From a virus (taxonomy: Duplodnaviria; Heunggongvirae; Uroviricota; Caudoviricetes): 36,714 nt of DNA. A program made the translations under genes and the position numbers. Below are positions 3,894-29,668 of the stretch, piece by piece. The DNA is taken from the IMG/VR virus record IMGVR_UViG_2737471844_000001. One strand, given 5' to 3'. The notes under the pieces are model-generated. The model did no database searches, was not told the origin of the DNA, and saw only the letters and a program-made list of their open reading frames with translations. The first letter of the stretch is position 1. The number at the start of each line of letters is the position of its first letter.

Positions 3894-4168
3894 GTATTCG
3901 TATCGAAATTGGCGAACGTTATGTCGTTACCAGTGACAGCTTTCAGTTTATTCTCCACGAGAAAAAGAGAGCGGAAAGCGGTAAAAACGCCGGTCAGGAA
4001 TGGCTGGCGGTGGTTGGTTATTACCCGAAATTAAGCCAGCTCGTTTCCGGCCTGATGCATCACGATATTCTGACCGGAAGCGCAAAGTCTTTTGCTGATT
4101 TAAACGCGCAGGTTGAGCAACTCAGCAAGCGTTGTTCAGAGGCGTTCTCCAGAGGAGCGTCTGAATGA
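3890..4168 (+). CDS. Early protein at the P2 orf83 position (92 aa)
   Basis: Synteny; ATGA overlap with the previous gene. Confidence 0.65.
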   Translation: MSIRIEIGERYVVTSDSFQFILHEKKRAESGKNAGQEWLAVVGYYPKLSQLVSGLMHHDILTGSAKSFADLNAQVEQLSKRCSEAFSRGASE

Positions 4169-5172
4169 TTACTGATGCTCGTTGCCATACTGAAAATACC
4201 ATCAATGTTATTTTTGTTTCAGGTGGAAAGGACAGCCTTGCTCAGTGGCTTGTCGCTATTGAAGAAAATGTACCCATATTGCCGGTTTTTGCTGATACGG
4301 GACATGAACATCCACAGACAATGAAATATCTGGATTATCTGGAAAAACGGCTTGGCCCAATTAAAAGAGTCAGAGCTGATTTTTCCTGCCGGATTGAATC
4401 AAAGCGCAAGTTTATCCAGACCAAATGGCCTGACTTGTTGGTTAACGATTGTGGAATGTCGGAAGAAGAAGCGCACCAGCGCATCAGTTGTGCGCTGGAA
4501 ATTCTCAAACCAACGGGTATCCCGTTTCTTGATTTGTGTCTGTGGAAGGGGCGTTTCCCATCAACCAAAGCCAGATTTTGCACATTTGAACTGAAACATG
4601 AGCCCGTGCGTTCTCAGGTAATATTGCCTTTACTCAATGAATTTGAGGAAGTGATTAGCTGGCAGGGAGTGCGTGCTCAGGAATCGCCATCACGCGCTGC
4701 TTTACCTGTCTGGGAAGAGGATGCAGACAACACCCCCGGATTGCATGTATATCGCCCGATTTTGCACTGGAAGCATGAAGATGTATTTGCAATAGCCAGA
4801 AGACATGACATTAAGCCAAATCCGTTATATCAGCAGGGGTGTGGCCGTGTTGGTTGTATGCCATGTATTCATGTCCGTAAATCTGAACTGGCAGAAATTT
4901 TTCGCCGGTGGCCGGAGGAAATAAAACGGGTTGCTGAATGGGAACGACTGGTTGCGTCGTGCTCCCGTCGGGGAAATTCCACTTTTTTCCCATCCACACA
5001 TGATCCGCTACGCGCAGAACGTCGTATTGAGATTGTAACAGTCGAGGCATACGGAATAGAAACCTACCATGACTGGACAATGACAACGCGTGGGGGTACT
5101 CAGTTTGATTTACTGGCTTCGGCGAATGATAAAGCCGTTTGCAGTAGTGTCTATGCCGGTGTATGTGAATGA
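4165..5172 (+). CDS. PAPS reductase-like (PP-loop ATP pyrophosphatase family) protein, 335 aa
   Basis: N-terminal PP-loop VIFVSGGKDS; C-terminal cysteine cluster GCGRVGCMPC; inserted between orf83 and A, translationally coupled to both. Confidence 0.7.
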   Translation: MITDARCHTENTINVIFVSGGKDSLAQWLVAIEENVPILPVFADTGHEHPQTMKYLDYLEKRLGPIKRVRADFSCRIESKRKFIQTKWPDLLVNDCGMSEEEAHQRISCALEILKPTGIPFLDLCLWKGRFPSTKARFCTFELKHEPVRSQVILPLLNEFEEVISWQGVRAQESPSRAALPVWEEDADNTPGLHVYRPILHWKHEDVFAIARRHDIKPNPLYQQGCGRVGCMPCIHVRKSELAEIFRRWPEEIKRVAEWERLVASCSRRGNSTFFPSTHDPLRAERRIEIVTVEAYGIETYHDWTMTTRGGTQFDLLASANDKAVCSSVYAGVCE

Positions 5173-7439
5173 GTCATTCTTTCCAGGAGCAATACACCTG
5201 CGTAACTACGTCAGCATTTGCTGCAGGCACCGGTAAGACGTTTACCGGTGCTTATGCATGGAACGCGCCACGCGAGGCCGTCGGGCGCGAAAGACCCCTT
5301 ACACGTGACGAGATGCGTCAGGTGCAAGGGGTTTTATCCACGATTAACCGCCTGCCTTACTTTTTGCGCTCGCTGTTTACTTCACGCTATGACTACATCC
5401 GGCGCAATAAAAGCCCGGTACACGGGTTTTATTTCCTCACATCCACTTTTCAGCGTCGTTTATGGCCGCGCATTGAGCGCGTGAATCAGCGCCATGAAAT
5501 GAACACCGACGCGTCGTTGCTGTTTCTGGCTGAGCGTGACCACTATGCGCGTCTGCCGGGGATGAATGACAAGGAGCTGAAAAAGTTTGCCGCCCGTATT
5601 TCATCGCAGCTTTTCATGATGTATGAGGAACTCTGCGATGCCTGGGTGGATGCGCATGGCGAAAAAGAATCACTGTTTACGGATGAGGCGCAGGATCATC
5701 TGTATGGTCATGTTGCTGGCGCTGCACGTGCTTTCAATATTTCCCCGCTCTACTGGAAAAAATACCGTAAAGGACAGATAACCACGAGGCAGGCATATTC
5801 TGCCATTGCCCGCCTGTTTAACGATGAGTGGTGGACTCATCAGCTTAAAGGCCAGCGTATGCGCTGGCATGAAGCGTTACTGATAGCTGTCGGGGAGGTC
5901 AATAAAGACCGTTCTCCTTATGCCAGTAAACATGCCATTCGTGATGTGCGTGCGCGCCGCCAGGCAAATCTGGAATTTCTTAAATCGTGTGACCTTGAAA
6001 ACAGGGAAACCGGCGAGCGCATCGACCTTATCAGTAAGGTGATGGGCAGTATTTCTAATCCTGAAATTCGCCGGATGGAGCTGATGAACACCATTGCCGG
6101 TATTGAGCGTTACGCCGCCGCAGAGGGTGATGTGGGGATGTTTATCACGCTGACCGCGCCGTCAAAGTATCACCCGACACGTCAGGTCGGAAAAGGCGAA
6201 AGTAAAACCGTTCAGCTTAATCACGGCTGGAACGATGAGGCATTTAATCCAAAGGATGCGCAGCGTTATCTCTGCCGTATCTGGAGCCTGATGCGCACGG
6301 CATTCAAGGATAATGATTTACAGGTCTACGGTTTGCGTGTCGTCGAGCCACACCACGACGGAACGCCGCACTGGCATATGATGCTTTTTTGTAATCCATG
6401 CCAGCGTAACCAGATTATCGAAATCATGCGTCGCTATGCGCTCAAAGAGGATAGTGACGAAAGAGGCGCTGCGCGAAACCGTTTTCAGGCAAAGCACCTT
6501 AACCGGGGCGGTGCTGCGGGATATATCGCGAAATACATCTCAAAAAACATCGACGGCTATGCACTGGATGGTCAGCTCGATAACGATACTGGCAGGCCGC
6601 TGAAAGATACTGCTGCGGCTGTTACCGCATGGGCGTCAACGTGGCGCATTCCGCAATTTAAAACGGTTGGCCTGCCGACAATGGGGGCTTACCGTGAACT
6701 ACGCAAATTGCCTCGCGGCGTCAGCATTGCTGATGAGTTTGACGAACGCGTCGAGGCTGCACGCGCCGCCGCAGACAGTGGTGATTTTGCGTTGTATATC
6801 AGCGCGCAGGGTGGGGCAAATGTCCCGCGCGATTGTCAGACTGTCAGGGTCGCCCGTAGCCCGTCGGATGACGTTAACGAGTATGAGGAAGAAGTCGAGA
6901 GAGTGGTCGGCATTTACGCGCCGCATCTCGGCGCGCGTCATATTCATATCACCAGAACGACGGACTGGCGCATTGTGCCGAAAGTTCCGGTCGTTGAGCC
7001 TTTGACTTTAATAAGCGGCATCGCCGCGCCTCGGAGTCCTGTCAATAACTGTGGAAAGCTCACCGGTGGTGATACTTCGTTACCGGCTCCCACACCTTCT
7101 GAGCACGCCGCAGCAGTGCTTAATCTGGTTGATGACGGTGTTATTGAATGGAATGAACCGGAGGTCGTGAGGGCGCTCAGGGGCGCATTAAAATACGACC
7201 TGAGAACGCCAAACCGTCAGCAAAGAAACGGAAGCCCGTTAAAACCGCATGAAATTGCACCATCTGCCAGACTGACCAGGTCTGAACGATTGCAAATCAC
7301 CCGTATCCGCGTTGACCTTGCTCAGAACGGTATCAGGCCGCAGCGATGGGAGCTTGAGGCGCTGGCGCGTGGAGCGACCGTAAATTATGACGGGAAAAAA
7401 TTCACGTATCCGGTCGCTGATGGTTGGGGGGATTCATAG
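5169..7439 (+). CDS. A: Rolling-circle replication initiator endonuclease (P2 A-like, 756 aa)
   Basis: Length close to P2 A; HUH motif EPHHDGTPHWHMM and paired-tyrosine motif GYIAKYISK. Confidence 0.92.
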   Translation: MSHSFQEQYTCVTTSAFAAGTGKTFTGAYAWNAPREAVGRERPLTRDEMRQVQGVLSTINRLPYFLRSLFTSRYDYIRRNKSPVHGFYFLTSTFQRRLWPRIERVNQRHEMNTDASLLFLAERDHYARLPGMNDKELKKFAARISSQLFMMYEELCDAWVDAHGEKESLFTDEAQDHLYGHVAGAARAFNISPLYWKKYRKGQITTRQAYSAIARLFNDEWWTHQLKGQRMRWHEALLIAVGEVNKDRSPYASKHAIRDVRARRQANLEFLKSCDLENRETGERIDLISKVMGSISNPEIRRMELMNTIAGIERYAAAEGDVGMFITLTAPSKYHPTRQVGKGESKTVQLNHGWNDEAFNPKDAQRYLCRIWSLMRTAFKDNDLQVYGLRVVEPHHDGTPHWHMMLFCNPCQRNQIIEIMRRYALKEDSDERGAARNRFQAKHLNRGGAAGYIAKYISKNIDGYALDGQLDNDTGRPLKDTAAAVTAWASTWRIPQFKTVGLPTMGAYRELRKLPRGVSIADEFDERVEAARAAADSGDFALYISAQGGANVPRDCQTVRVARSPSDDVNEYEEEVERVVGIYAPHLGARHIHITRTTDWRIVPKVPVVEPLTLISGIAAPRSPVNNCGKLTGGDTSLPAPTPSEHAAAVLNLVDDGVIEWNEPEVVRALRGALKYDLRTPNRQQRNGSPLKPHEIAPSARLTRSERLQITRIRVDLAQNGIRPQRWELEALARGATVNYDGKKFTYPVADGWGDS

Positions 7440-7688: not shown

Positions 7689-9905
7689 CTAAGCGGTAAC
7701 GTTCTCCTCTTCTAGTTCGTCCATCATTTTTAAATAATGCATTTCGTCACCAGTAGCTGAAAATATTGTTCTCAATTGTTTTAGGTATTTATCTGGGTCT
7801 ATGTCGCCCATATCAGTAATATTTACCGCATCAGAGTGAGAACCTCTGTTAATGTATCTGTAGAATGCTTTGAAATCACTGTTGCTATCGTCGCGTGCCA
7901 ACTTTGTTAATTCATCTTGTAGAGCATCTGTTCTATGAACAAATGCAAAATAATATTCTAGTATGTTTCTCATAATATTAGGTATTATGATTTTGTTTGC
8001 TTTGCCATCTTTTGCATCTTTTAATATTTGCCACAAAGATTGATATTCATTCTGTATGCTGTTTTTTTGTATTTCAGTAATTATACTAAAATCATTTTTC
8101 GTTACTCTACCTAGATAATAGTTTTTCTTAAATAGTTTGTCTTCTCTGCTTTTAGGAGATAGCTTAATAAGTTCATGAAAGAAATAAAGATTGTGAGTAA
8201 GGATTAATACCTTCTTTGTTAATTCATTTTTTATAATGTGGTGATGAATAATTGATGCGATGTCGTAGACATAGTTTTGCGATAGACTAGATATTGGATC
8301 GTCAATAACAATAAAAATATCCCTGCTATCGGTATCATTTTTATCGGTTTTACCTTTACAGCACTCTAAAAAATAAAGAAACGTTATTAGTGTTTTTTCA
8401 CCTTCGCTAAGAGATCTATAAACATTTTGGTTTTTTGTATGCCCTGGTCGAGATATAATGTACATATCTTTTCTTTCTGCATGTTTTTCAATACAAAAAC
8501 CAGAGATCCCTAGATTTTTTAAATGGGTGTTTATTGAGTCTATCGTAGAATCAATGTTAGATATTTTATCTCGCAATGCTTTTATTGTGAGATTATTTTC
8601 TTTTCCTTGTTGCTCAATATTATTTAATTCATCATGAACTTTCTTTTTGATATCAAAGAATTTTTCTTTGTGTTTGGATAAATTCTCTAAATCATCGCTG
8701 CAAAAAGCATGGAGAGCCCCCCAAACTTGTTTTCCGATTTTATTCTCATACTCTTTGAGTTTTTTAACCTTATCATTTATGTCTCTTATTTTTTTGTTAA
8801 CAGCGTCTATGCTTTCCTGAACATGATTTTCTAGTTCTTTATCAATTTCTAATGTAACGCATGTTGATGGATTGTTGATCTTATCAATAATGTTTATTAA
8901 ATTTTTTTCTGCAATGTTTTGCAATATTTTAATATTGGAAATAATGATCTCTTTATCTTTCTCATTGATTAGTGCACATGATGATATATTGTTTTGTATT
9001 TCGTTAAAATGATATATGGTATTTTTCTCATAAACTGACTTTATATCTGAGAGCTGTTTTACTTTCTTTGAATAACTTTCGTCAAATATTGATTTAAGGG
9101 CATTTAAAAATTCGCGACTAATAGTTTTTTCCTGACAAAACGGGCATGTAGAACCGTCTAAATAATGTTCTTTACCTTTTTTTACCCAGTCAAGATTATG
9201 AAGTTTATTAATGGTTTCTGATAAATAGCTATTGCTTGTATCTATTATAGGTGTTGCTAATGTATTTACATCATCAATTGATGGGGTATATGGGTGTAAA
9301 GGAGTTATTAATGCGGTTTCATTGTTTCTATTTTCTAATAGTATAGAGTATTCTTTTGCTATATCATTTAAATTAATAAAGGTGATTGGTGAGGATGATT
9401 TTATCATCTCAAAAAAAGGTCTTTTATAGCCAACTTTACCTTTCATTAAGGTTTTTAGTACAGAGTTTCTGATTGGTTCTGTTTTTTTCCAGATCGATTC
9501 GATGTATTCATTTTCTTTTTTTTCCATTTCTGCTTCTAATTTCAATAACACTCCTTTTTTTTGTCTATATTGCTCTGTAAGTTGCTGTTTAATTGCTTCT
9601 TTTTTAATTAATTGTTTTTCAATATCTGCATTTTCTTTACTTAATGTAAAAACACCTTTTTGTTCCTGTGCATTGTAGAAATTATCTTCAATAAATTTAG
9701 TGTTGTAAACAAGAGGTTTGTAATTGTCAAGAAGGGTACATTCACACTCGTTATAATCTGTGTGTGTAGAGTCGTAGAAATAATTTGAAATGGTAGATTT
9801 GCCACAACCATTTTGGCCGTATAGTATGTTTACTCTTTTTTCAAGATTCAGTATTGTGAAGGCGTCTTTCTTATAACTGGTAACATTTTTTAATCTAAGT
9901 TCCAT
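7689..9905 (-). CDS. Cargo ABC-type ATPase (738 aa) with CxxC insertion and possible RloC/PrrC-like anticodon-nuclease C-terminal region; candidate anti-phage defence protein
   Basis: Walker A GQNGCGKST (res 30-38), ABC signature LSEGEK, Walker B IFIVIDDP, H-loop LTHN; CPFC at res 254-257 plus ECEC at 54-56; C-terminal R-x3-E then H at +40; AT-rich island at the P2 tin/old position; GAGG RBS before the ATG. Confidence 0.6.
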   Translation of the reverse strand: MELRLKNVTSYKKDAFTILNLEKRVNILYGQNGCGKSTISNYFYDSTHTDYNECECTLLDNYKPLVYNTKFIEDNFYNAQEQKGVFTLSKENADIEKQLIKKEAIKQQLTEQYRQKKGVLLKLEAEMEKKENEYIESIWKKTEPIRNSVLKTLMKGKVGYKRPFFEMIKSSSPITFINLNDIAKEYSILLENRNNETALITPLHPYTPSIDDVNTLATPIIDTSNSYLSETINKLHNLDWVKKGKEHYLDGSTCPFCQEKTISREFLNALKSIFDESYSKKVKQLSDIKSVYEKNTIYHFNEIQNNISSCALINEKDKEIIISNIKILQNIAEKNLINIIDKINNPSTCVTLEIDKELENHVQESIDAVNKKIRDINDKVKKLKEYENKIGKQVWGALHAFCSDDLENLSKHKEKFFDIKKKVHDELNNIEQQGKENNLTIKALRDKISNIDSTIDSINTHLKNLGISGFCIEKHAERKDMYIISRPGHTKNQNVYRSLSEGEKTLITFLYFLECCKGKTDKNDTDSRDIFIVIDDPISSLSQNYVYDIASIIHHHIIKNELTKKVLILTHNLYFFHELIKLSPKSREDKLFKKNYYLGRVTKNDFSIITEIQKNSIQNEYQSLWQILKDAKDGKANKIIIPNIMRNILEYYFAFVHRTDALQDELTKLARDDSNSDFKAFYRYINRGSHSDAVNITDMGDIDPDKYLKQLRTIFSATGDEMHYLKMMDELEEENVTA

Positions 9906-22080: not shown

Positions 22081-24399
22081 ATGAGCACAAAATTCAGAAC
22101 CGTTATCACCACTGCCGGTGCAGCAAAGCTGGCAGCGGCAACCGCGCCGGGAGGGCGGAAGGTCAACATTACCACGATGGCCGTCGGGGATGGCGGTGGT
22201 AAATTGCCTGTCCCGGATGCCGGACAGACCGGGCTTATCCATGAAGTCTGGCGACATGCGCTGAACAAAATCAGCCAGGACAAACGAAACAGTAATTATA
22301 TTATCGCAGAGCTGGTTATTCCGCCGGAGGTGGGCGGTTTCTGGATGCGTGAGCTTGGCCTGTACGATGATGCGGGAACATTAATTGCCGTGGCGAACAT
22401 GGCCGAAAGTTATAAGCCAGCTCTTGCCGAAGGCTCAGGGCGTTCGCAGACCTGTCGCATGGTCATCATCGTCAGCAGTGTGGCCTCAGTGGCGCTGACC
22501 ATTGACACCACAACGGTGATGGCGACGCAGGATTACGTTGATGACAAAATTGCAGAGCATGAACAGTCACGACGTCACCCGGACGCCTCGCTGACCGCAA
22601 AAGGTTTTACTCAGTTAAGCAATGCGACCAACAGCACGTCTGAAACACTGGCCGCAACGCCGAAAGCGGTAAAGGCCGCGTATGATCTTGCTAACGGGAA
22701 ATACACTGCGCAGGATGCCACCACAGCGCGAAAAGGCCTTGTCCAGCTCAGTAGCGCCACCAACAGCACGTCTGAAACGCTCGCCGCAACACCAAAAGCG
22801 GTAAAGGCAGCATATGACCTTGCTAACGGGAAATACACTGCACAGGACGCCACCACAGCGCGAAAAGGTCTTGTCCAGCTCAGTAGCGCCACCAACAGCG
22901 ATTCTGAAACGCTTGCGGCAACGCCAAAGGCGGTTAAGACAGCGTATGACCTTGCTAACGGGAAATACACTGCACAGGACGCCACCACGGCGCGGAAAGG
23001 TCTTGTTCAGCTCAGTAGCGCCACCAACAGTGATTCTGAAACGCTGGCCGCAACATCAAAAGCGGTGAAGTCTGCCTATGACAATGCTGAAAAACGTCTT
23101 CAGAAAGATCAGAACGGTGCGGATATTCCGGGAAAGGATACCTTCACGAAAAATATCGGTGCCTGTCGTGCTTATAGCGGCGCTTTGAGCACTGAAGCCG
23201 GAAACTGGACAACCGCTCAGTTTATTGAATGGCTGGATTCCCGTGGTGCATTTAATCATCCGTACTGGATGTGCAAAGGCTCCTGGTCATATGCAAATAA
23301 CAAAATCATTACGGATACCGGATGTGGTGATATCCACCTGGCTGGTTGTGTCGTCGAGGTCATGGGAACTAAATCTGCAATCACTATCCGAGTGACCACG
23401 CCGACAACATCAAGTGGTGGCGGTACAACCAGCGCGCAATTCACTTACATTAATCATGGGGACGGCTACTCCCCCGGCTGGCGTCGTGACTGGAATCGTC
23501 AGGGCGACTCAATGACCGGAACGATTAATCAGGATGGCGGAAGCCAGAATGCCTATATGTCTACGGCCTTATGTTCAGGCACCAGAGGCGGCAAAAAATA
23601 TCTCAGAAAGTTTCGTGGTGGAGAAGGAGACACTATCTGGCATGAAACAGTACAGGGCGGGGTAGTTCGCTGGGCGACTGGTAATACTGATGCTCAGGAA
23701 GAATTATCACTCAGCTCCGCTTATGGTCTCCGTTCAAGAGGTGAGATTACATCACTCAGTGCTAATGGTCTGCGCATTGCTTATGGCAATTATGGTTTCT
23801 TTATCAGGAATGATGGCAGCAGCACTTATTTTATGTTGACTAAATCAGGTGACAGATTAGGCAGTTATAATAATTTAAGACCGCTGATTATAAATGATGC
23901 CACGGGTGCTGTATCAATGGGGCATGGCCTGAATGTTACTGGTGATATTGTCTCAAGTACCAAAGTACGTGCCGGTAGCGGGAAAAAATTCACGGTCAGC
24001 AGCAGTAATACATCCACGAAGGAAGCCGCATTCAATTTGTGGGGAAACTCAAGTCGTCCGGTGGTGGCTGAATTAGGTGATGATGCAGGCTGGCATTTTT
24101 ACAGTCAGAGAAATACAGATAACAGCATCACTTTTGCTGTTAACGGGCAGGTATCACCATCTAACTATGGCAACTTTGATTCACGCTATGTCCGGGATAT
24201 CCGGCTTGGTGGTGCTGCCACATACAAACCTGCGAACAATGGCATGACATGGACACATCAGGCACCGTCCGGGTGTGTATATTCCGGCATTATTGTTCAG
24301 GATACCGGCTCAAACTCTGCCGATAACATTGGTGGCATATATTACAGACCGGTGCAGAAATACATTAACGGGACATGGTATAACGTGGCGCAGGTATAA
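22081..24399 (+). CDS. H: Tail fibre protein (P2 H-like, 772 aa) with internal tandem repeats
   Basis: Position between I and G; about 100 aa longer than the P2 H length I recall (669 aa), accounted for by the in-frame repeats. Confidence 0.88.
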   Translation: MSTKFRTVITTAGAAKLAAATAPGGRKVNITTMAVGDGGGKLPVPDAGQTGLIHEVWRHALNKISQDKRNSNYIIAELVIPPEVGGFWMRELGLYDDAGTLIAVANMAESYKPALAEGSGRSQTCRMVIIVSSVASVALTIDTTTVMATQDYVDDKIAEHEQSRRHPDASLTAKGFTQLSNATNSTSETLAATPKAVKAAYDLANGKYTAQDATTARKGLVQLSSATNSTSETLAATPKAVKAAYDLANGKYTAQDATTARKGLVQLSSATNSDSETLAATPKAVKTAYDLANGKYTAQDATTARKGLVQLSSATNSDSETLAATSKAVKSAYDNAEKRLQKDQNGADIPGKDTFTKNIGACRAYSGALSTEAGNWTTAQFIEWLDSRGAFNHPYWMCKGSWSYANNKIITDTGCGDIHLAGCVVEVMGTKSAITIRVTTPTTSSGGGTTSAQFTYINHGDGYSPGWRRDWNRQGDSMTGTINQDGGSQNAYMSTALCSGTRGGKKYLRKFRGGEGDTIWHETVQGGVVRWATGNTDAQEELSLSSAYGLRSRGEITSLSANGLRIAYGNYGFFIRNDGSSTYFMLTKSGDRLGSYNNLRPLIINDATGAVSMGHGLNVTGDIVSSTKVRAGSGKKFTVSSSNTSTKEAAFNLWGNSSRPVVAELGDDAGWHFYSQRNTDNSITFAVNGQVSPSNYGNFDSRYVRDIRLGGAATYKPANNGMTWTHQAPSGCVYSGIIVQDTGSNSADNIGGIYYRPVQKYINGTWYNVAQV
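22600..23095 (+). repeat. About 3.75 tandem copies of a 132-bp (44-aa) in-frame repeat inside H
   Basis: Repeat units begin at 22600, 22732, 22864 and 22996, each encoding K-G-x-x-Q-L-S-x-ATNSxSETLAATPKAVKxAYDLANGKYTAQDATTAR; the last copy is partial. Confidence 0.9.
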
Positions 24400-24402
24400 T
24401 TT

Positions 24403-24930
24403 ATGCAGCATTTGATAAATATAACGGTGGGTAATCCAAAAACGGTTGAACAATATCAATTGACAAAGGACTTTGATGTTGTCTGGTTTTTTTCAGAAGA
24501 TGGTAAGAACTGGTACGAAGAACAAAAGTATTTTGCTGATGACACGATAAAAATAGCGTACGACAAAGATAATATTATCCGCTATGTGGAAAAGGATGTG
24601 ACAGCTATCAGACCAGATGGATTAAGTGTGGTTGAAGTGGCGGATATTACTGCTAACCGACGGGCGGACATTTCAGGGAACTGGATGTTTAAGGACGGCA
24701 AAGTGATTAAACGCATTTATACGGCAGAGGAATTGCAGCAGCAGGCAGAAAACCGGAAAGCCAGACTTCTTGCAGATGCTGAATCCGTGATTTTGCCACT
24801 GGAGCGCGCTGTCAGGCTGAACATGGCAACAGATGAGGAGCGTAGCCGACTGGAAGCATGGGAACGCTACAGTGTTCTGGTCAGCCGTGTGGATCCTGCA
24901 AATCCTGAATGGCCGGAAATGCCGCAATAA
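24403..24930 (+). CDS. G: Tail fibre assembly chaperone (P2 G-like, 175 aa)
   Basis: Length and position after H. Confidence 0.88.
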
Positions 24931-25405
24931 GTTGTATAAGCTCTGGTGTGAGATTACATATCTATGGCACAGAGTAAAGCCTAATCTGACAGTCCGCTCT
25001 GTGCCAAGAGCGGACGTTACTACTACTCGACCTAAAGTAAAGCAATTGTACTCATTAAATAGTGGTAATTGGGTCTGGTGCTTAATCGAACGAAATCTCA
25101 TGTTAGGCGAAAAAAACGTCTGAAAAATCGATTAACACATACACCTGTGTACTATGGCCGTTATTCAATTTAAAAGGAACCATTTCCGATATGATTCACT
25201 GTCCATAATGTTTTGATTTATTAAAAAAGAGCCTTAGAGTGTGAAACCATTACGTTGAGTGGCGAACACCATTAATAAATTCTGCTTATACTTACAGCAT
25301 ATATTATGTTCACGTCATATAACCATGGCAAATAAGATATTGCACATCAAGCATGATTATGATAGTGATTACAAAAATGAAGAATCTTAGATAAAGGATT
25401 AGTAA

Positions 25406-26341
25406 GTGGTTACATATAATTCAATGTTGTTACCCCCCCCTAAATCTTGGGACGAATTTGAGGATATGTGCAAAAGTTCATTCCAACTGCGATGGTCCAA
25501 TCCTAATCTGAACAGACATGGACGGTCAGGGCAGCGGCAGGATGGAGTTGATGTATATGGTGATGACTCTCTTGGGCGTTTCGTTGGAATTCAGTGTAAA
25601 AATACAGTATCAGGAATCAGTACGGCGACAATCGATGATGAATTACTCAAGGCTGAAAAATTTCGCCCAAAAATTACGGTTCTTTACATCGCTACGACAG
25701 CGCCCAGGGATGTTAGCATTCAGCGCTATGTAAGAACACTCAATGATGCCAGACAATTAAAAGGCCTGTTTCCTGTCGATGTGGTTTTCTGGGAGGATAT
25801 TAGCTTTGATTTAAGCAAAGACCCAGCTGTACTCAAAATGTACTACCCGCAAATGTTCGAACGACACCAACCGACGAGGGAAGAATTTTTGCGCAAGAGA
25901 GATATCTCAAATTTGTCGACATTGTTGAATGTTATTGATTTTCATTCAACAATAGAACATTTGCAGTGGGGCGCAAAATACATTCATTCATTAATTATTG
26001 AAGAATACGATAATATTTTGAACATTTTAAACTCACCTGTTTTTCAACTGAATGATACAGCTTTAAAGAATGTTACAATTGATTTTGCAACGGCCTGGCG
26101 TGATCTAATTATCTTGTTTAGAAAAGCTCCATATAATTATTCAGCACCAAATGATACTTTTAGTTTTATAAATCCCGGTGACCACTGTCGAAATCAGGAG
26201 GAAAGCGATTTATACGACGAAATCACGCATAGCATGAGTAATCTCAAAGATAAAATTAGTACTTTTTGTGACTTTATAAATAATCACTACCATGAAATAA
26301 ACTTAACCGAAACGAGCGCGCAAGCCAGGAAATATTATTAA
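25406..26341 (+). CDS. Cargo protein with Mrr-like PD-(D/E)xK restriction-endonuclease-fold N-domain and uncharacterised C-domain (311 aa); candidate defence nuclease
   Basis: EFE...GRSGQRQDGVDVYGDD...RFVGIQCK...ITVLYIATT resembles the Mrr catalytic-domain pattern (D, D, QxK); GTG start with AAGGA RBS; AT-rich island at the P2 Z/fun position. Confidence 0.6.
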   Translation: MVTYNSMLLPPPKSWDEFEDMCKSSFQLRWSNPNLNRHGRSGQRQDGVDVYGDDSLGRFVGIQCKNTVSGISTATIDDELLKAEKFRPKITVLYIATTAPRDVSIQRYVRTLNDARQLKGLFPVDVVFWEDISFDLSKDPAVLKMYYPQMFERHQPTREEFLRKRDISNLSTLLNVIDFHSTIEHLQWGAKYIHSLIIEEYDNILNILNSPVFQLNDTALKNVTIDFATAWRDLIILFRKAPYNYSAPNDTFSFINPGDHCRNQEESDLYDEITHSMSNLKDKISTFCDFINNHYHEINLTETSAQARKYY

Positions 26342-26618
26342 TACTTTTTTCTTAAGGGCTGCACTCATGGCCCTTAACACCGTTAGACTGTCATATTTTG
26401 CAATCGATACGCAGTTAGGTACTTTCTTGAAGTCCGTTCCTCGCTCATAGCTGACATTCAGCTCAATTAACTCGTCCACTTCGCTCCAACAGAAGGCGTA
26501 GCTAATCATACTGTGTATTAAAGAAAGGAGAAACGATCATGTTGAGTACAAAAAACACGAAAGACCATGATAAGGAAAATATGCGTAGAGTGACTTAGTT
26601 TATTGATTTAAATAATAT

Positions 26619-26924
26619 TTATGGGGGTAAGTGCTTTGAATAAAAAAACAAAAATTGAGAAGATTTAGCTAGTGCCAAAATAATTTGGACACCGCCCGTC
26701 ATCAGACCCGCTACTACACTTATCACCCCAGCCCAAAAAGTTTCAATGAAACAAGATACATATAGTAGTACTACATGGCGGAATAATTTACTCATAGGCT
26801 TCTCCTTACTGACGTAATCGTTAAGTAACACGTTGAGGTAACGGATAAATGCGACTATTGGGAGAGCTGTGATGAGAATTGTAGGCATAGGAATCGAACC
26901 TATGGATGCACTAGCTAAATTCAC
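26619..26924 (-). CDS. Possible small membrane protein (101 aa, GTG start), antisense between the two cargo genes; may be spurious
   Basis: Two or three hydrophobic segments; no clear RBS; reads through a tRNA T-arm-like motif on the same strand. Confidence 0.25.
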   Translation of the reverse strand: MNLASASIGSIPMPTILITALPIVAFIRYLNVLLNDYVSKEKPMSKLFRHVVLLYVSCFIETFWAGVISVVAGLMTGGVQIILALAKSSQFLFFYSKHLPP

Positions 26925-27125
26925 TCTTCACGAATTATACAGCATTGTAGTGAGTTTGTAAATACACGCCCCAAAAGTCAATCAGTCCGCTCCATGAATG
27001 TTGTGTCAGTACTACTAAAGTTAAACATGCTAAAATAGGTTCCCAATATTCGTGGGTACAATCACTATCTGTGTAACTGGCGGAAGCGCTGGCATAACGA
27101 CGATGCCTATTCGGGGGGCTTTAAT

Positions 27126-27992
27126 ATGGTCCGTTTTAACTTACTAGAAAATGCGTTGGATTCAGTGGAAACCGGGCTGGACTACTTTAACAAAGCGCTA
27201 GAAGGGCATGATCGACGTGACTACAAACAGTGCCTGCTTAACCTCTTTCAGGCCGCTGAGCTATTGTTGAAGGCCGTAGTTTCGCGCAATGGGTCTGGAG
27301 CGATTTTTAATCCAGCATCGCTTCAAGAAAAATGTGTGGATCCGGCGCATCCAACCGAGTCAGAATTACACCAGTGTAAATCTGTCAACGTCAACCAGCT
27401 TTGTAAGCTGTTAAAGACATATTACCCAGCCGAATTTTCTGAATCTGCATTACAAATGATGAAAACGGTGGGTCAGTTGCGTAATAACCTTCAGCATTTT
27501 GCCCTTGAGGTTCGTCCGCAAGAACTGGCAATGCAACTGAGTGAACTGTACCAACAAATTTTTCGTCCCGCATTCGTCATAATTCAGTCAGATGAGACCG
27601 AAAATTCATGGAACTCTGATTTACGTCAAGACATCATCGCTCTTGAGCAACAATTCCTTGATATAACTGTTAACCAGGAATACACCCTTGCACTTTGTCC
27701 CGTTTGTGAGAGTTTTTCACATTTTATCCTTTACCAAAGTGAAAGCTTTCCGGCACGGACTCACTGTATCTGTTGTGGTTTCAGCCTGAATAATCTGCAA
27801 ACTTGGGATTTTCAGGAATGTCCTGAATGTAGTGTCCCATCCGTAATTTATTTACCGGAACAAAGGGTCGGTGTCTGTCTCTGGTATAAATGTGAATACA
27901 GCAAGATGGATGGTTTTGTTCCTATGGAGCCTTGTGAATGTGGTGCATTCCGGATGGAAGGTCATTGCAGTAACTGCGATCTTGAGGAATAG
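27126..27992 (+). CDS. Cargo HEPN-domain protein with Cys-rich putative zinc-ribbon C-terminus (288 aa); candidate RNase-type defence effector
   Basis: Rx4H motif in TVGQLRNNLQHF after an alpha-helical N-region; C-terminal 90 aa with repeated CxxC/CxC pairs (CPVC, CICC, CPEC, CEC, CSNC). Confidence 0.6.
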   Translation: MVRFNLLENALDSVETGLDYFNKALEGHDRRDYKQCLLNLFQAAELLLKAVVSRNGSGAIFNPASLQEKCVDPAHPTESELHQCKSVNVNQLCKLLKTYYPAEFSESALQMMKTVGQLRNNLQHFALEVRPQELAMQLSELYQQIFRPAFVIIQSDETENSWNSDLRQDIIALEQQFLDITVNQEYTLALCPVCESFSHFILYQSESFPARTHCICCGFSLNNLQTWDFQECPECSVPSVIYLPEQRVGVCLWYKCEYSKMDGFVPMEPCECGAFRMEGHCSNCDLEE

Positions 27993-28355
27993 TAAAATCG
28001 TCCGATGAGAATGTACAGCAGCCTGGTCGATGATTTCTTGATGAATCGCTGAATTATCCGGTATTACTTGACAACTAAATCGCACATTTCTGTTTCTGGC
28101 AATTTGAAAGGTTTACTCTATGCCCCAGAATTCAGCACATACATAAAAACACCATTTCAGAACGCGTCTTGATCCAAAGAACGACTGTATGATAGATAGG
28201 CGTCGTCGTGAGGACAGGAATGATCTACCCCCCGTTATTCATACAGAATGCTGTTAGTAATGTCCGCAGATCGCTCAAAGCAGACTGTCAGATTTGATAG
28301 CGTTTGGGCTATGTAAGTAGCCAGTTGGAGAATGAGTGAGTGCAAATCAGGACTG

Positions 28356-28381
28356 GCGGGCGAATTGCCCGCATTTTCTTT
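28356..28381 (+). terminator. Candidate rho-independent terminator separating the cargo island from the late tail operon
   Basis: GCGGGC-GAATT-GCCCGC hairpin followed by ATTTTCTTTAT. Confidence 0.6.
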
Positions 28382-28477
28382 ATCTGTTGTTTCATCCACT
28401 GACCAGCCAGGTCAAATAGCGTCTCATGCACTGCCCAACAGAAAATAGTTGCACCCATTAACCACGGAGTTAAACGG

Positions 28478-29668
28478 ATGAGTGACTATCATCACGGCGT
28501 GCAGGTGCTGGAGATTAACGACGGCACCCGCGTCATTTCCACTGTATCCACTGCCATTGTCGGCATGGTCTGCACGGCCAGCGATGCGGATGCGGAAACC
28601 TTCCCCCTCAATAAACCTGTGCTGATTACCAATGTGCAGAGCGCAATTGCAAAGGCCGGTAAAAAAGGCACGCTGGCGGCATCGTTGCAGGCCATCGCTG
28701 ACCAGTCAAAACCGGTCACCGTTGTCGTGCGCGTGGAAGACGGCACCGGCGACGACGAAGAAACGAAACTCGCGCAGACTGTTTCCAATATCATCGGCAC
28801 CACCGACGAAAACGGTCAGTACACCGGACTGAAAGCCCTGCTGGCGGCGGAGTCGGTAACCGGTGTTAAACCGCGTATTCTCGGTGTGCCGGGACTGGAT
28901 ACCAAAGAGGTGGCTGTTGCACTGGCATCCGTCTGTCAGAAGCTGCGTGCTTTCGGATATATCAGCGCATGGGGCTGTAAGACCATTTCCGAGGTGAAAG
29001 CCTACCGCCAGAATTTCAGCCAGCGTGAGCTGATGGTCATCTGGCCGGATTTCCTCGCATGGGATACGGTCACCAGTACCACCGCCACCGCGTATGCCAC
29101 CGCCCGTGCGCTGGGGCTGCGCGCTAAAATCGACCAGGAGCAGGGCTGGCATAAAACGCTGTCCAATGTCGGGGTGAACGGTGTTACCGGCATCAGCGCA
29201 TCTGTATTCTGGGATTTGCAGGAGTCCGGCACCGATGCTGACCTGCTTAACGAGTCAGGCGTCACTACGCTGATTCGCCGCGACGGTTTCCGATTCTGGG
29301 GTAACCGTACCTGCTCTGATGACCCGCTGTTCCTCTTTGAAAACTACACCCGCACCGCGCAGGTGCTGGCCGACACGATGGCTGAGGCGCACATGTGGGC
29401 GGTGGACAAGCCCATCACCGCAACGCTGATTCGCGACATCGTTGACGGCATCAATGCCAAATTCCGTGAGCTGAAAACAAACGGCTATATCGTGGATGCG
29501 ACCTGCTGGTTCAGCGAAGAATCCAACGATGCGGAAACCCTCAAGGCCGGAAAACTGTATATCGACTACGACTATACCCCGGTGCCTCCTCTTGAAAACC
29601 TGACCCTGCGCCAGCGTATTACCGATAAATACCTGGCAAATCTGGTCACTTCGGTTAACAGCAATTAA
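28478..29668 (+). CDS. FI: Tail sheath protein (P2 FI-like, 396 aa)
   Basis: Exact P2 FI length; synteny. Confidence 0.92.
   Translation: MSDYHHGVQVLEINDGTRVISTVSTAIVGMVCTASDADAETFPLNKPVLITNVQSAIAKAGKKGTLAASLQAIADQSKPVTVVVRVEDGTGDDEETKLAQTVSNIIGTTDENGQYTGLKALLAAESVTGVKPRILGVPGLDTKEVAVALASVCQKLRAFGYISAWGCKTISEVKAYRQNFSQRELMVIWPDFLAWDTVTSTTATAYATARALGLRAKIDQEQGWHKTLSNVGVNGVTGISASVFWDLQESGTDADLLNESGVTTLIRRDGFRFWGNRTCSDDPLFLFENYTRTAQVLADTMAEAHMWAVDKPITATLIRDIVDGINAKFRELKTNGYIVDATCWFSEESNDAETLKAGKLYIDYDYTPVPPLENLTLRQRITDKYLANLVTSVNSN

Follow-up and report, generated by a model that had tools for sequence, protein, structure and literature searches.

A HEPN and zinc-ribbon protein encoded among the tail genes of a P2-like prophage is a candidate anti-phage ribonuclease

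What might a prophage of E. coli gain from a gene, lodged among its tail genes, for a protein with a helical N-terminus and a cysteine-rich C-terminus? The window, by which we mean the whole stretch of DNA that was analyzed, spans 36,714 nucleotides and corresponds to a P2-like (Peduovirus) prophage from E. coli. The gene sits at the G/FI (Z/fun) tail-gene accessory locus, which in P2 has been described in the literature as a secondary defense hotspot. The gene and its surroundings are arranged as follows:

22081-24399, tail fiber gene
24403-24930, tail-fiber assembly gene
27126..27992, plus strand, coding sequence (stop codon included) of the 288-amino-acid HEPN-zinc-ribbon protein, identical to RefSeq WP_000251361.1 ("hypothetical protein")
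28356..28372, plus strand, terminator-like hairpin followed by a T-run, 3′ of the HEPN gene and 5′ of FI, a pattern match only
28478-29668, tail sheath gene FI, with the tail tube (FII) and tape measure genes also nearby

The cargo at this locus has a GC content of 40%, compared with 50.5% for the window, and its flanks share ~96% identity with phage P2 and related phages, in which other genes lie between G and FI. From 25300 to 28200, the sequence matches the chromosomes of several enterotoxigenic E. coli (ETEC) strains at 100% identity, where all three ORFs are labeled "hypothetical protein". When 50,697 deposited phage genomes were searched with megablast and tblastn, neither the cargo nor the protein had a match and the flanking P2 tail genes alone were found. 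An Rfam scan of 24900-28500 gave no credible match. The 288-amino-acid ORF begins with an ATG that has a G-rich Shine-Dalgarno-like run 7 nt upstream, and this start is supported by its homologs, since they share an MV(K/R)F N-terminus. No sigma-70-like promoter was found directly upstream of the gene on the plus strand.

Is the protein a HEPN ribonuclease? The original prediction had pointed to an Rx4H motif following a helical N-terminus, and this motif, RNNLQH (residues 119-124), is the sole Rx4-6H match in the protein. As ~0.8 chance matches are expected for a protein of such composition, the motif is uninformative by itself. A database search recovered 36 clusters of homologs (31%-99% identity, mainly from Enterobacterales and Aeromonas), and in an alignment of 20 homologs (A1), R119, N120, Q123, and H124 are invariant down to 32% identity. 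R119, N120, and H124 are still invariant in relatives that share 20%-25% identity, in an alignment of 18 sequences (A2) that reaches down to 20%. In the AF2 monomer model, helices make up the N-terminal half and short beta-hairpins the C-terminal part; the protein has the all-alpha, up-and-down helical bundle of the HEPN fold and, within it, a conserved Rx4-6H motif. Because both the motif residues and twelve cysteines are invariant in the homolog alignment, we consider the underlying observation confirmed. The parts of the protein are:

27126..27590, plus strand, HEPN domain (residues 1-155), a DUF3644-type helical bundle
27480..27497, plus strand, Rx4H catalytic motif RNNLQH (R119-H124), with R119, N120, and H124 invariant, aligning with R123-H128 of HEC-08 (described below)
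27696..27776, plus strand, putative zinc ribbon 1, C191-x2-C194...C214-x-C216-C217, with cysteines invariant among close homologs and beta-hairpins at pLDDT ~90
27819..27893, plus strand, putative zinc ribbon 2, C232-P-E-C235...C251-x4-C256, TFIIB-like, invariant at 20%-25% identity
27933..27977, plus strand, putative zinc ribbon 3, C270-x-C272...C281-x2-C284, invariant at 20%-25% identity

The HEPN domain could instead be a non-catalytic ligand- or protein-binding domain, with the protein serving as a regulator or in the phage life cycle. We regard this as very unlikely, as every protein in the superfamily sample has the R, N, and H of the RNx3H motif, the gene is a rare accessory one (28 of 5,426 complete E. 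coli genomes) that is missing from deposited phage genomes, and P2-like phages with different cargo have the same conserved flanks.

The C-terminal 100 residues are predicted to hold three conserved Cys4 zinc ribbons. The protein contains 17 cysteines, 13 of them within residues 191-284. Although ~14 C-terminal cysteines had been counted in the original prediction, their proposed arrangement in zinc ribbons held up: twelve of the 13 are invariant in the 20-homolog alignment and fall into three CxxC/CxC...CxxC Cys4 sets. Distant relatives (20%-25% identity) keep each of the eight cysteines in ribbons 2 and 3, and most of these relatives, not all, keep ribbon 1 as well. In a search of PDB sequences with the family profile, ribbon 2 matched the TFIIB zinc ribbon (1pft, E = 8e-4); this was the only match, and no solved full-length relative was found. 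A viral fold search of BFVD returned nothing at E ≤ 0.001.

Is this architecture new? The original prediction did not recognize it as a named defense system, a view that has to be revised: the HEPN-zinc-ribbon architecture is known and named, since both the HEC-08 and PDC-S64 models and a 2013 census of HEPN proteins already cover it. The Pfam matches of the window protein are under the gathering thresholds (DUF3644, 15.7 bits with a cut-off of 27.6; HEPN, 14.9 bits with a cut-off of 22), but matches to PADLOC defense models say more about its family. PDC-S64, a single-gene system in PADLOC-DB v2, is the top-scoring defense model, with partial coverage; its model PDLC05059 matches at E = 4.3e-21 (73.3 bits) in two stretches, and the top stretch covers positions 1-129 of 339, corresponding to the HEPN part. 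The PADLOC HEC-08 HMM gives a low score of only 24.1 bits (E = 4.2e-6), although it aligns residues 14-285 with its positions 20-300 of 358, and weaker matches in the scan were to PDC-S19, DUF3644, and Csm6/Csx1. PDC systems are "phage defence candidates" that were predicted by "guilt by embedding" and put into PADLOC by Payne et al. No papers that mention the RefSeq accessions or "PDC-S64" were found in a search of the literature.

Relatives of the protein fall into the same models. When 1.84 billion representatives were searched exhaustively with the profile, 647 proteins matched at E ≤ 1e-3; many were 280-330 amino acids long and matched over their full length. When ten of these were scanned, eight matched HEC-08 (top E = 2.5e-29), PDC-S64, and DUF3644, one matched all three more weakly, and one matched PDC-S64 only. 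Distant relatives found with the family profile match the PADLOC copy of DUF3644 at E ~1e-25, and full-length ones span up to 305 of the 339 positions of the PDC-S64 model. The census described an EC042_2821-like HEPN family that is catalytically active, overlaps DUF3644, is fused to ZnR (and also to wHTH and REase) domains, and occurs in restriction-modification (R-M) operons (Anantharaman et al., 2013). This family was described by comparative genomics, and the window protein may belong to it.

The closest experimentally tested relative is HEC-08, or Hma-embedded candidate 8, of E. coli ECOR52, in which a DUF3644 HEPN domain is followed by C-terminal zinc fingers. HEC-08 reduced plaquing in E. 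coli, and its H128 mutant lost defense (Payne et al., bioRxiv 10.1101/2024.01.29.577857). We took the tested sequence (WP_001313577, 366 amino acids) from Table S2 of that study. In a pairwise comparison, the 288-amino-acid protein and HEC-08 are 21% identical over the HEPN domain alone (E = 6e-4). With hhalign, the close-family profile A1 also aligned with HEC-08 in the HEPN domain only (probability 92.3%, E = 5.5e-7), and the broader profile A2 aligned over 240 columns that comprise the HEPN domain and the first two ribbons (99.35%, E = 5.4e-21). R119 and H124 align with HEC-08 R123 and H128. Both proteins are products of single genes, and in both a helical linker connects an N-terminal DUF3644-type HEPN domain containing RNx3H to several Cys4 ribbons arrayed at the C-terminus. 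They differ in that HEC-08 has four ribbons and the window protein three, in that only the window protein has a cysteine-containing insert in the HEPN domain, and in their location, since HEC-08 lies inside an Hma system whereas the window gene occupies a P2 prophage tail-gene locus. By its profile matches, the window protein is a divergent branch, or distant relative, of the HEC-08/PDC-S64 HEPN-zinc-ribbon family. The dependence of defense on the motif histidine is known for HEC-08 H128, and H124 is predicted to be the equivalent residue.

The insert is specific to the clade, ~30 residues long (about residues 56-88), and missing in distant relatives including HEC-08. It contains two cysteines, C70 and C84 (27333-27377), that are invariant among close homologs and might pair in a disulfide or bind an additional metal.

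How might such a protein act? The reading that we favor, and hold to be probable, is that the gene encodes a stand-alone, prophage-carried anti-phage ribonuclease of the abortive-infection type that belongs to the DUF3644-HEPN and zinc-ribbon family (HEC-08/PDC-S64). Two HEPN domains would dimerize to create a composite Rx4H active site, and this site would cleave RNA and stop translation, aborting the infection. In the lysogen, the enzyme would be inactive until the zinc-ribbon array binds an infection-specific ligand, which could be a phage protein or a nucleic acid. The prophage would benefit because competing phages would be excluded. For the window protein, ribonuclease activity, dimerization, zinc binding, and trigger sensing are predictions.

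Gating by a ligand is proposed following the example of RAZR (PD-T7-4), a single-gene abortive infection system whose HEPN RNase, of the DUF4145 family, has catalytic R and H residues and is joined to a zinc-finger domain (Zhang et al., Nature 2026, PMC13017515). On its own, RAZR is not toxic; when its zinc-finger domain binds phage proteins that form rings, a 24-mer assembles and cleaves single-stranded RNA non-specifically, and exchanging this domain changes the specificity accordingly (PMC13017515). In both RAZR and the window protein, a Cys4 zinc-ribbon is joined to a HEPN domain in a single gene. However, the zinc finger of RAZR is N-terminal, whereas the HEPN domain precedes the ribbons in the window protein; RAZR has a DUF4145 HEPN domain and one zinc-finger domain, whereas the window protein is DUF3644-type with three ribbons; and the sensor domain of RAZR is hypervariable, whereas the ribbon region is, within the close family, as variable as the HEPN domain (0.55 versus 0.55 identity outside the cysteines). 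No PD-T7-4 model match was found for the window protein at E ≤ 1 among the PADLOC models. Thus, although RAZR is the best available model for how the window protein may work, the analogy is a guide to experiments and not a statement of membership, because the PD-T7-4 match is lacking, the domain order is inverted, the HEPN family is another one, and the ribbons are not hypervariable.

A bolder version of this idea, which we consider tentative and somewhat unlikely, is that the three-ribbon array directly senses a phage structural or replication protein or a nucleic-acid structure and activates the DUF3644 HEPN domain by induced oligomerization. This would be an independent RAZR-like solution with inverted order and another HEPN family, in which the C70/C84 pair could add a redox or metal switch and to which some lineages may have added a coupled 367-amino-acid regulator (see below).

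If a ribonuclease is carried silently in a lysogen, could a partner gene be what restrains it? The protein could act as a toxin in a toxin-antitoxin or addiction module and so stabilize the prophage or island, with the partner being a neighboring gene or a small divergent ORF, instead of being an immune protein that senses infection. HEPN-MNT toxins (SO_3166, PDB 5yep; 7ae2) are ~130-amino-acid single-domain proteins that are neutralized by an adjacent MNT nucleotidyltransferase, whereas the window protein has an additional 130-residue linker and zinc-ribbon extension. Neither an MNT/nucleotidyltransferase match nor another recognizable antitoxin gene was found in the window, where the neighbors are a 311-amino-acid Mrr-like protein and a small hydrophobic ORF, and no plausible small plus-strand partner ORF lies between 26342 and 27125. 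Moreover, the upstream genes vary by lineage and are missing from E. coli, Mixta, Deefgea, and a metagenomic locus (L007).

The small hydrophobic ORF (26619-26924, minus strand) is divergent from the HEPN gene and would encode 101 amino acids from a GTG, or 58 in the RefSeq annotation; an 11 of 12 match to the sigma-70 consensus lies just upstream of it at 26962..26934. It always accompanies the HEPN gene in the 26430-28200 cassette, both in E. coli and in Mixta theicola. The copies of the cassette that contain this ORF are all nearly identical, so its conservation is uninformative, and it may or may not be a real gene.

The surroundings of the relatives bear on the same question. No neighbor was common to all 12 loci in an all-against-all ORF comparison. 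A metagenomic homolog lies between a group of type I R-M, MazG, and SLFN-helicase genes and Gabija-like OLD-TOPRIM and UvrD genes, and Serratia copies are beside a HEC-04-like ATPase-TOPRIM, near cas1. These contexts are defense islands. In one subclade (a Klebsiella plasmid contig, an Enterobacter MAG, Superficieibacter, and Dickeya), a 367-amino-acid ORF ends 1-2 nt before the start of the HEPN gene, to which it is translationally coupled, and a convergent HEC-04-like ATPase-TOPRIM lies 3′ of the HEPN gene. This three-gene block is conserved in the subclade and missing from the window. The ORFs that flank the HEPN gene in these loci are:

L015 3911-4999, L018 1252-2355, and L019 and L020 4896-5999, upstream 367-amino-acid ORFs
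L015 5929-7500 and L019 6928-8493, minus strand, downstream ATPase ORFs

The upstream ORFs of this type are 78%-84% identical to each other, and the one ATPase pair compared, a Klebsiella and a Serratia copy, is 84% identical; Serratia has a different upstream ORF. The 367-amino-acid ORF is unannotated, with a weak, sub-threshold N-terminal match to DUF6364 (E = 0.004-0.02). A ribbon-helix-helix start for this protein was considered and set aside, its sole support being that sub-threshold match. A Panacea-domain antitoxin was likewise considered for the 240-amino-acid gene upstream of a Sphingobacteriaceae homolog (L024), and Pfam gave no support.

Because the 367-amino-acid gene is coupled in one subclade, "single-gene" may not hold for every member of the family, and such lineage-specific coupled partners keep a toxin-antitoxin-like reading alive for parts of it. 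For the window gene, we consider a toxin-antitoxin module unlikely. Toxin-antitoxin and abortive-infection roles are not mutually exclusive.

Could the stand-alone ribonuclease that we favor be directed against elements other than phages? It could be an immune RNase that acts on other mobile elements, such as conjugative plasmids, as modeled on Ishtar. Ishtar proteins are monogenic anti-plasmid HEPN proteins that cause loss of plasmid RP4; they combine a HEPN domain (DUF4145 or DUF3644) at the N-terminus with a C-terminal domain of unknown function, and their genes are located in hotspots and P4 satellites. This precedent, and the presence of one homolog (P0015) on a Rep3 plasmid contig, are consistent with an anti-plasmid role. 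However, Ishtar is ~212 amino acids long, its C-terminal beta/alpha domain is not Cys-rich, and the example sequences are without a cysteine array, whereas the window protein carries its ribbons; the accessions of both the window protein and HEC-08 are missing from the table of Ishtar homologs (Table S3); and HEC-08 acted against phages. We regard an anti-plasmid function as improbable.

Does the gene work with the 311-amino-acid gene upstream of it, as the original prediction had suggested might be examined? The upstream gene encodes a separate Mrr-like nuclease, and the two could form a system in which a DNase is paired with a HEPN RNase. They are adjacent, on the same strand, and both low in GC, and they share the hotspot in 13 E. 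coli genomes. The distribution of the HEPN cassette speaks against such a pairing:

26430..28200, strand not assigned, 1.8-kb mobile cassette carrying the HEPN gene, 98%-100% identical in 28 complete E. coli genomes

Although 13 of the 28 genomes have the 311-amino-acid gene upstream, the other 15 share 26430-28200 only. Further, 785 bp separate the two genes, with the divergent ORF and a promoter-like site in between; homologs of the 311-amino-acid protein occur in Serratia and Vibrio without a HEPN-zinc-ribbon neighbor; and among the loci compared, none was found near a HEPN-zinc-ribbon gene beyond the E. coli cassette. Pairing with the 311-amino-acid gene is largely refuted by genomics, and we give a two-gene system hardly any weight.

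In E. coli strain CP66-6, the cassette is preceded by genes for an S1 peptidase, a DUF4236 protein, and a DUF2971 protein (PDC-S31-like). The surrounding segment of this locus (L002, 1438-7561) is a degraded P2 remnant with an IS3 element, a P4-like integrase fragment, and a reverse transcriptase after the cassette, and the S1-family peptidase matches the protease part of RT-Protease/LmuA-like models. The locus looks like a composite defense island.

The window also contains other genes of possible defensive function. A 738-amino-acid protein (7689-9905, minus strand) is encoded in the main P2 hotspot, which lies between gpA (5169-7439) and the portal gene. It matches PADLOC PDC-S06 (E = 2e-254), and its C-terminal region is PrrC-like, making it an ABC-ATPase/anticodon-nuclease-like candidate by sequence. 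Given this match and the PrrC-like region, the prophage would carry at least two or three defense candidates. Just 5′ of gpA, a 335-amino-acid ORF (4165-5172, plus strand) has SspD/DndC/BrxP-like (PAPS-reductase family) matches, the SspD match at E = 3e-21.

If the stand-alone anti-phage reading is confirmed, the gene would extend the set of defenses known from P2-like prophages, in enterotoxigenic as well as other E. coli, by a compact (867-nt), single-gene RNase. A second experimentally tractable representative would then be available for the DUF3644-HEPN and zinc-ribbon family, which is large (647 representative clusters at 50% identity) and barely studied. The RefSeq "hypothetical protein" could be re-annotated as a HEC-08/PDC-S64-like defense candidate. 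As the precedent of RAZR illustrates, asking how a constitutively present HEPN RNase stays silent can reveal unexpected mechanisms of activation, and the potentially interesting part of this protein is what its ribbons sense.
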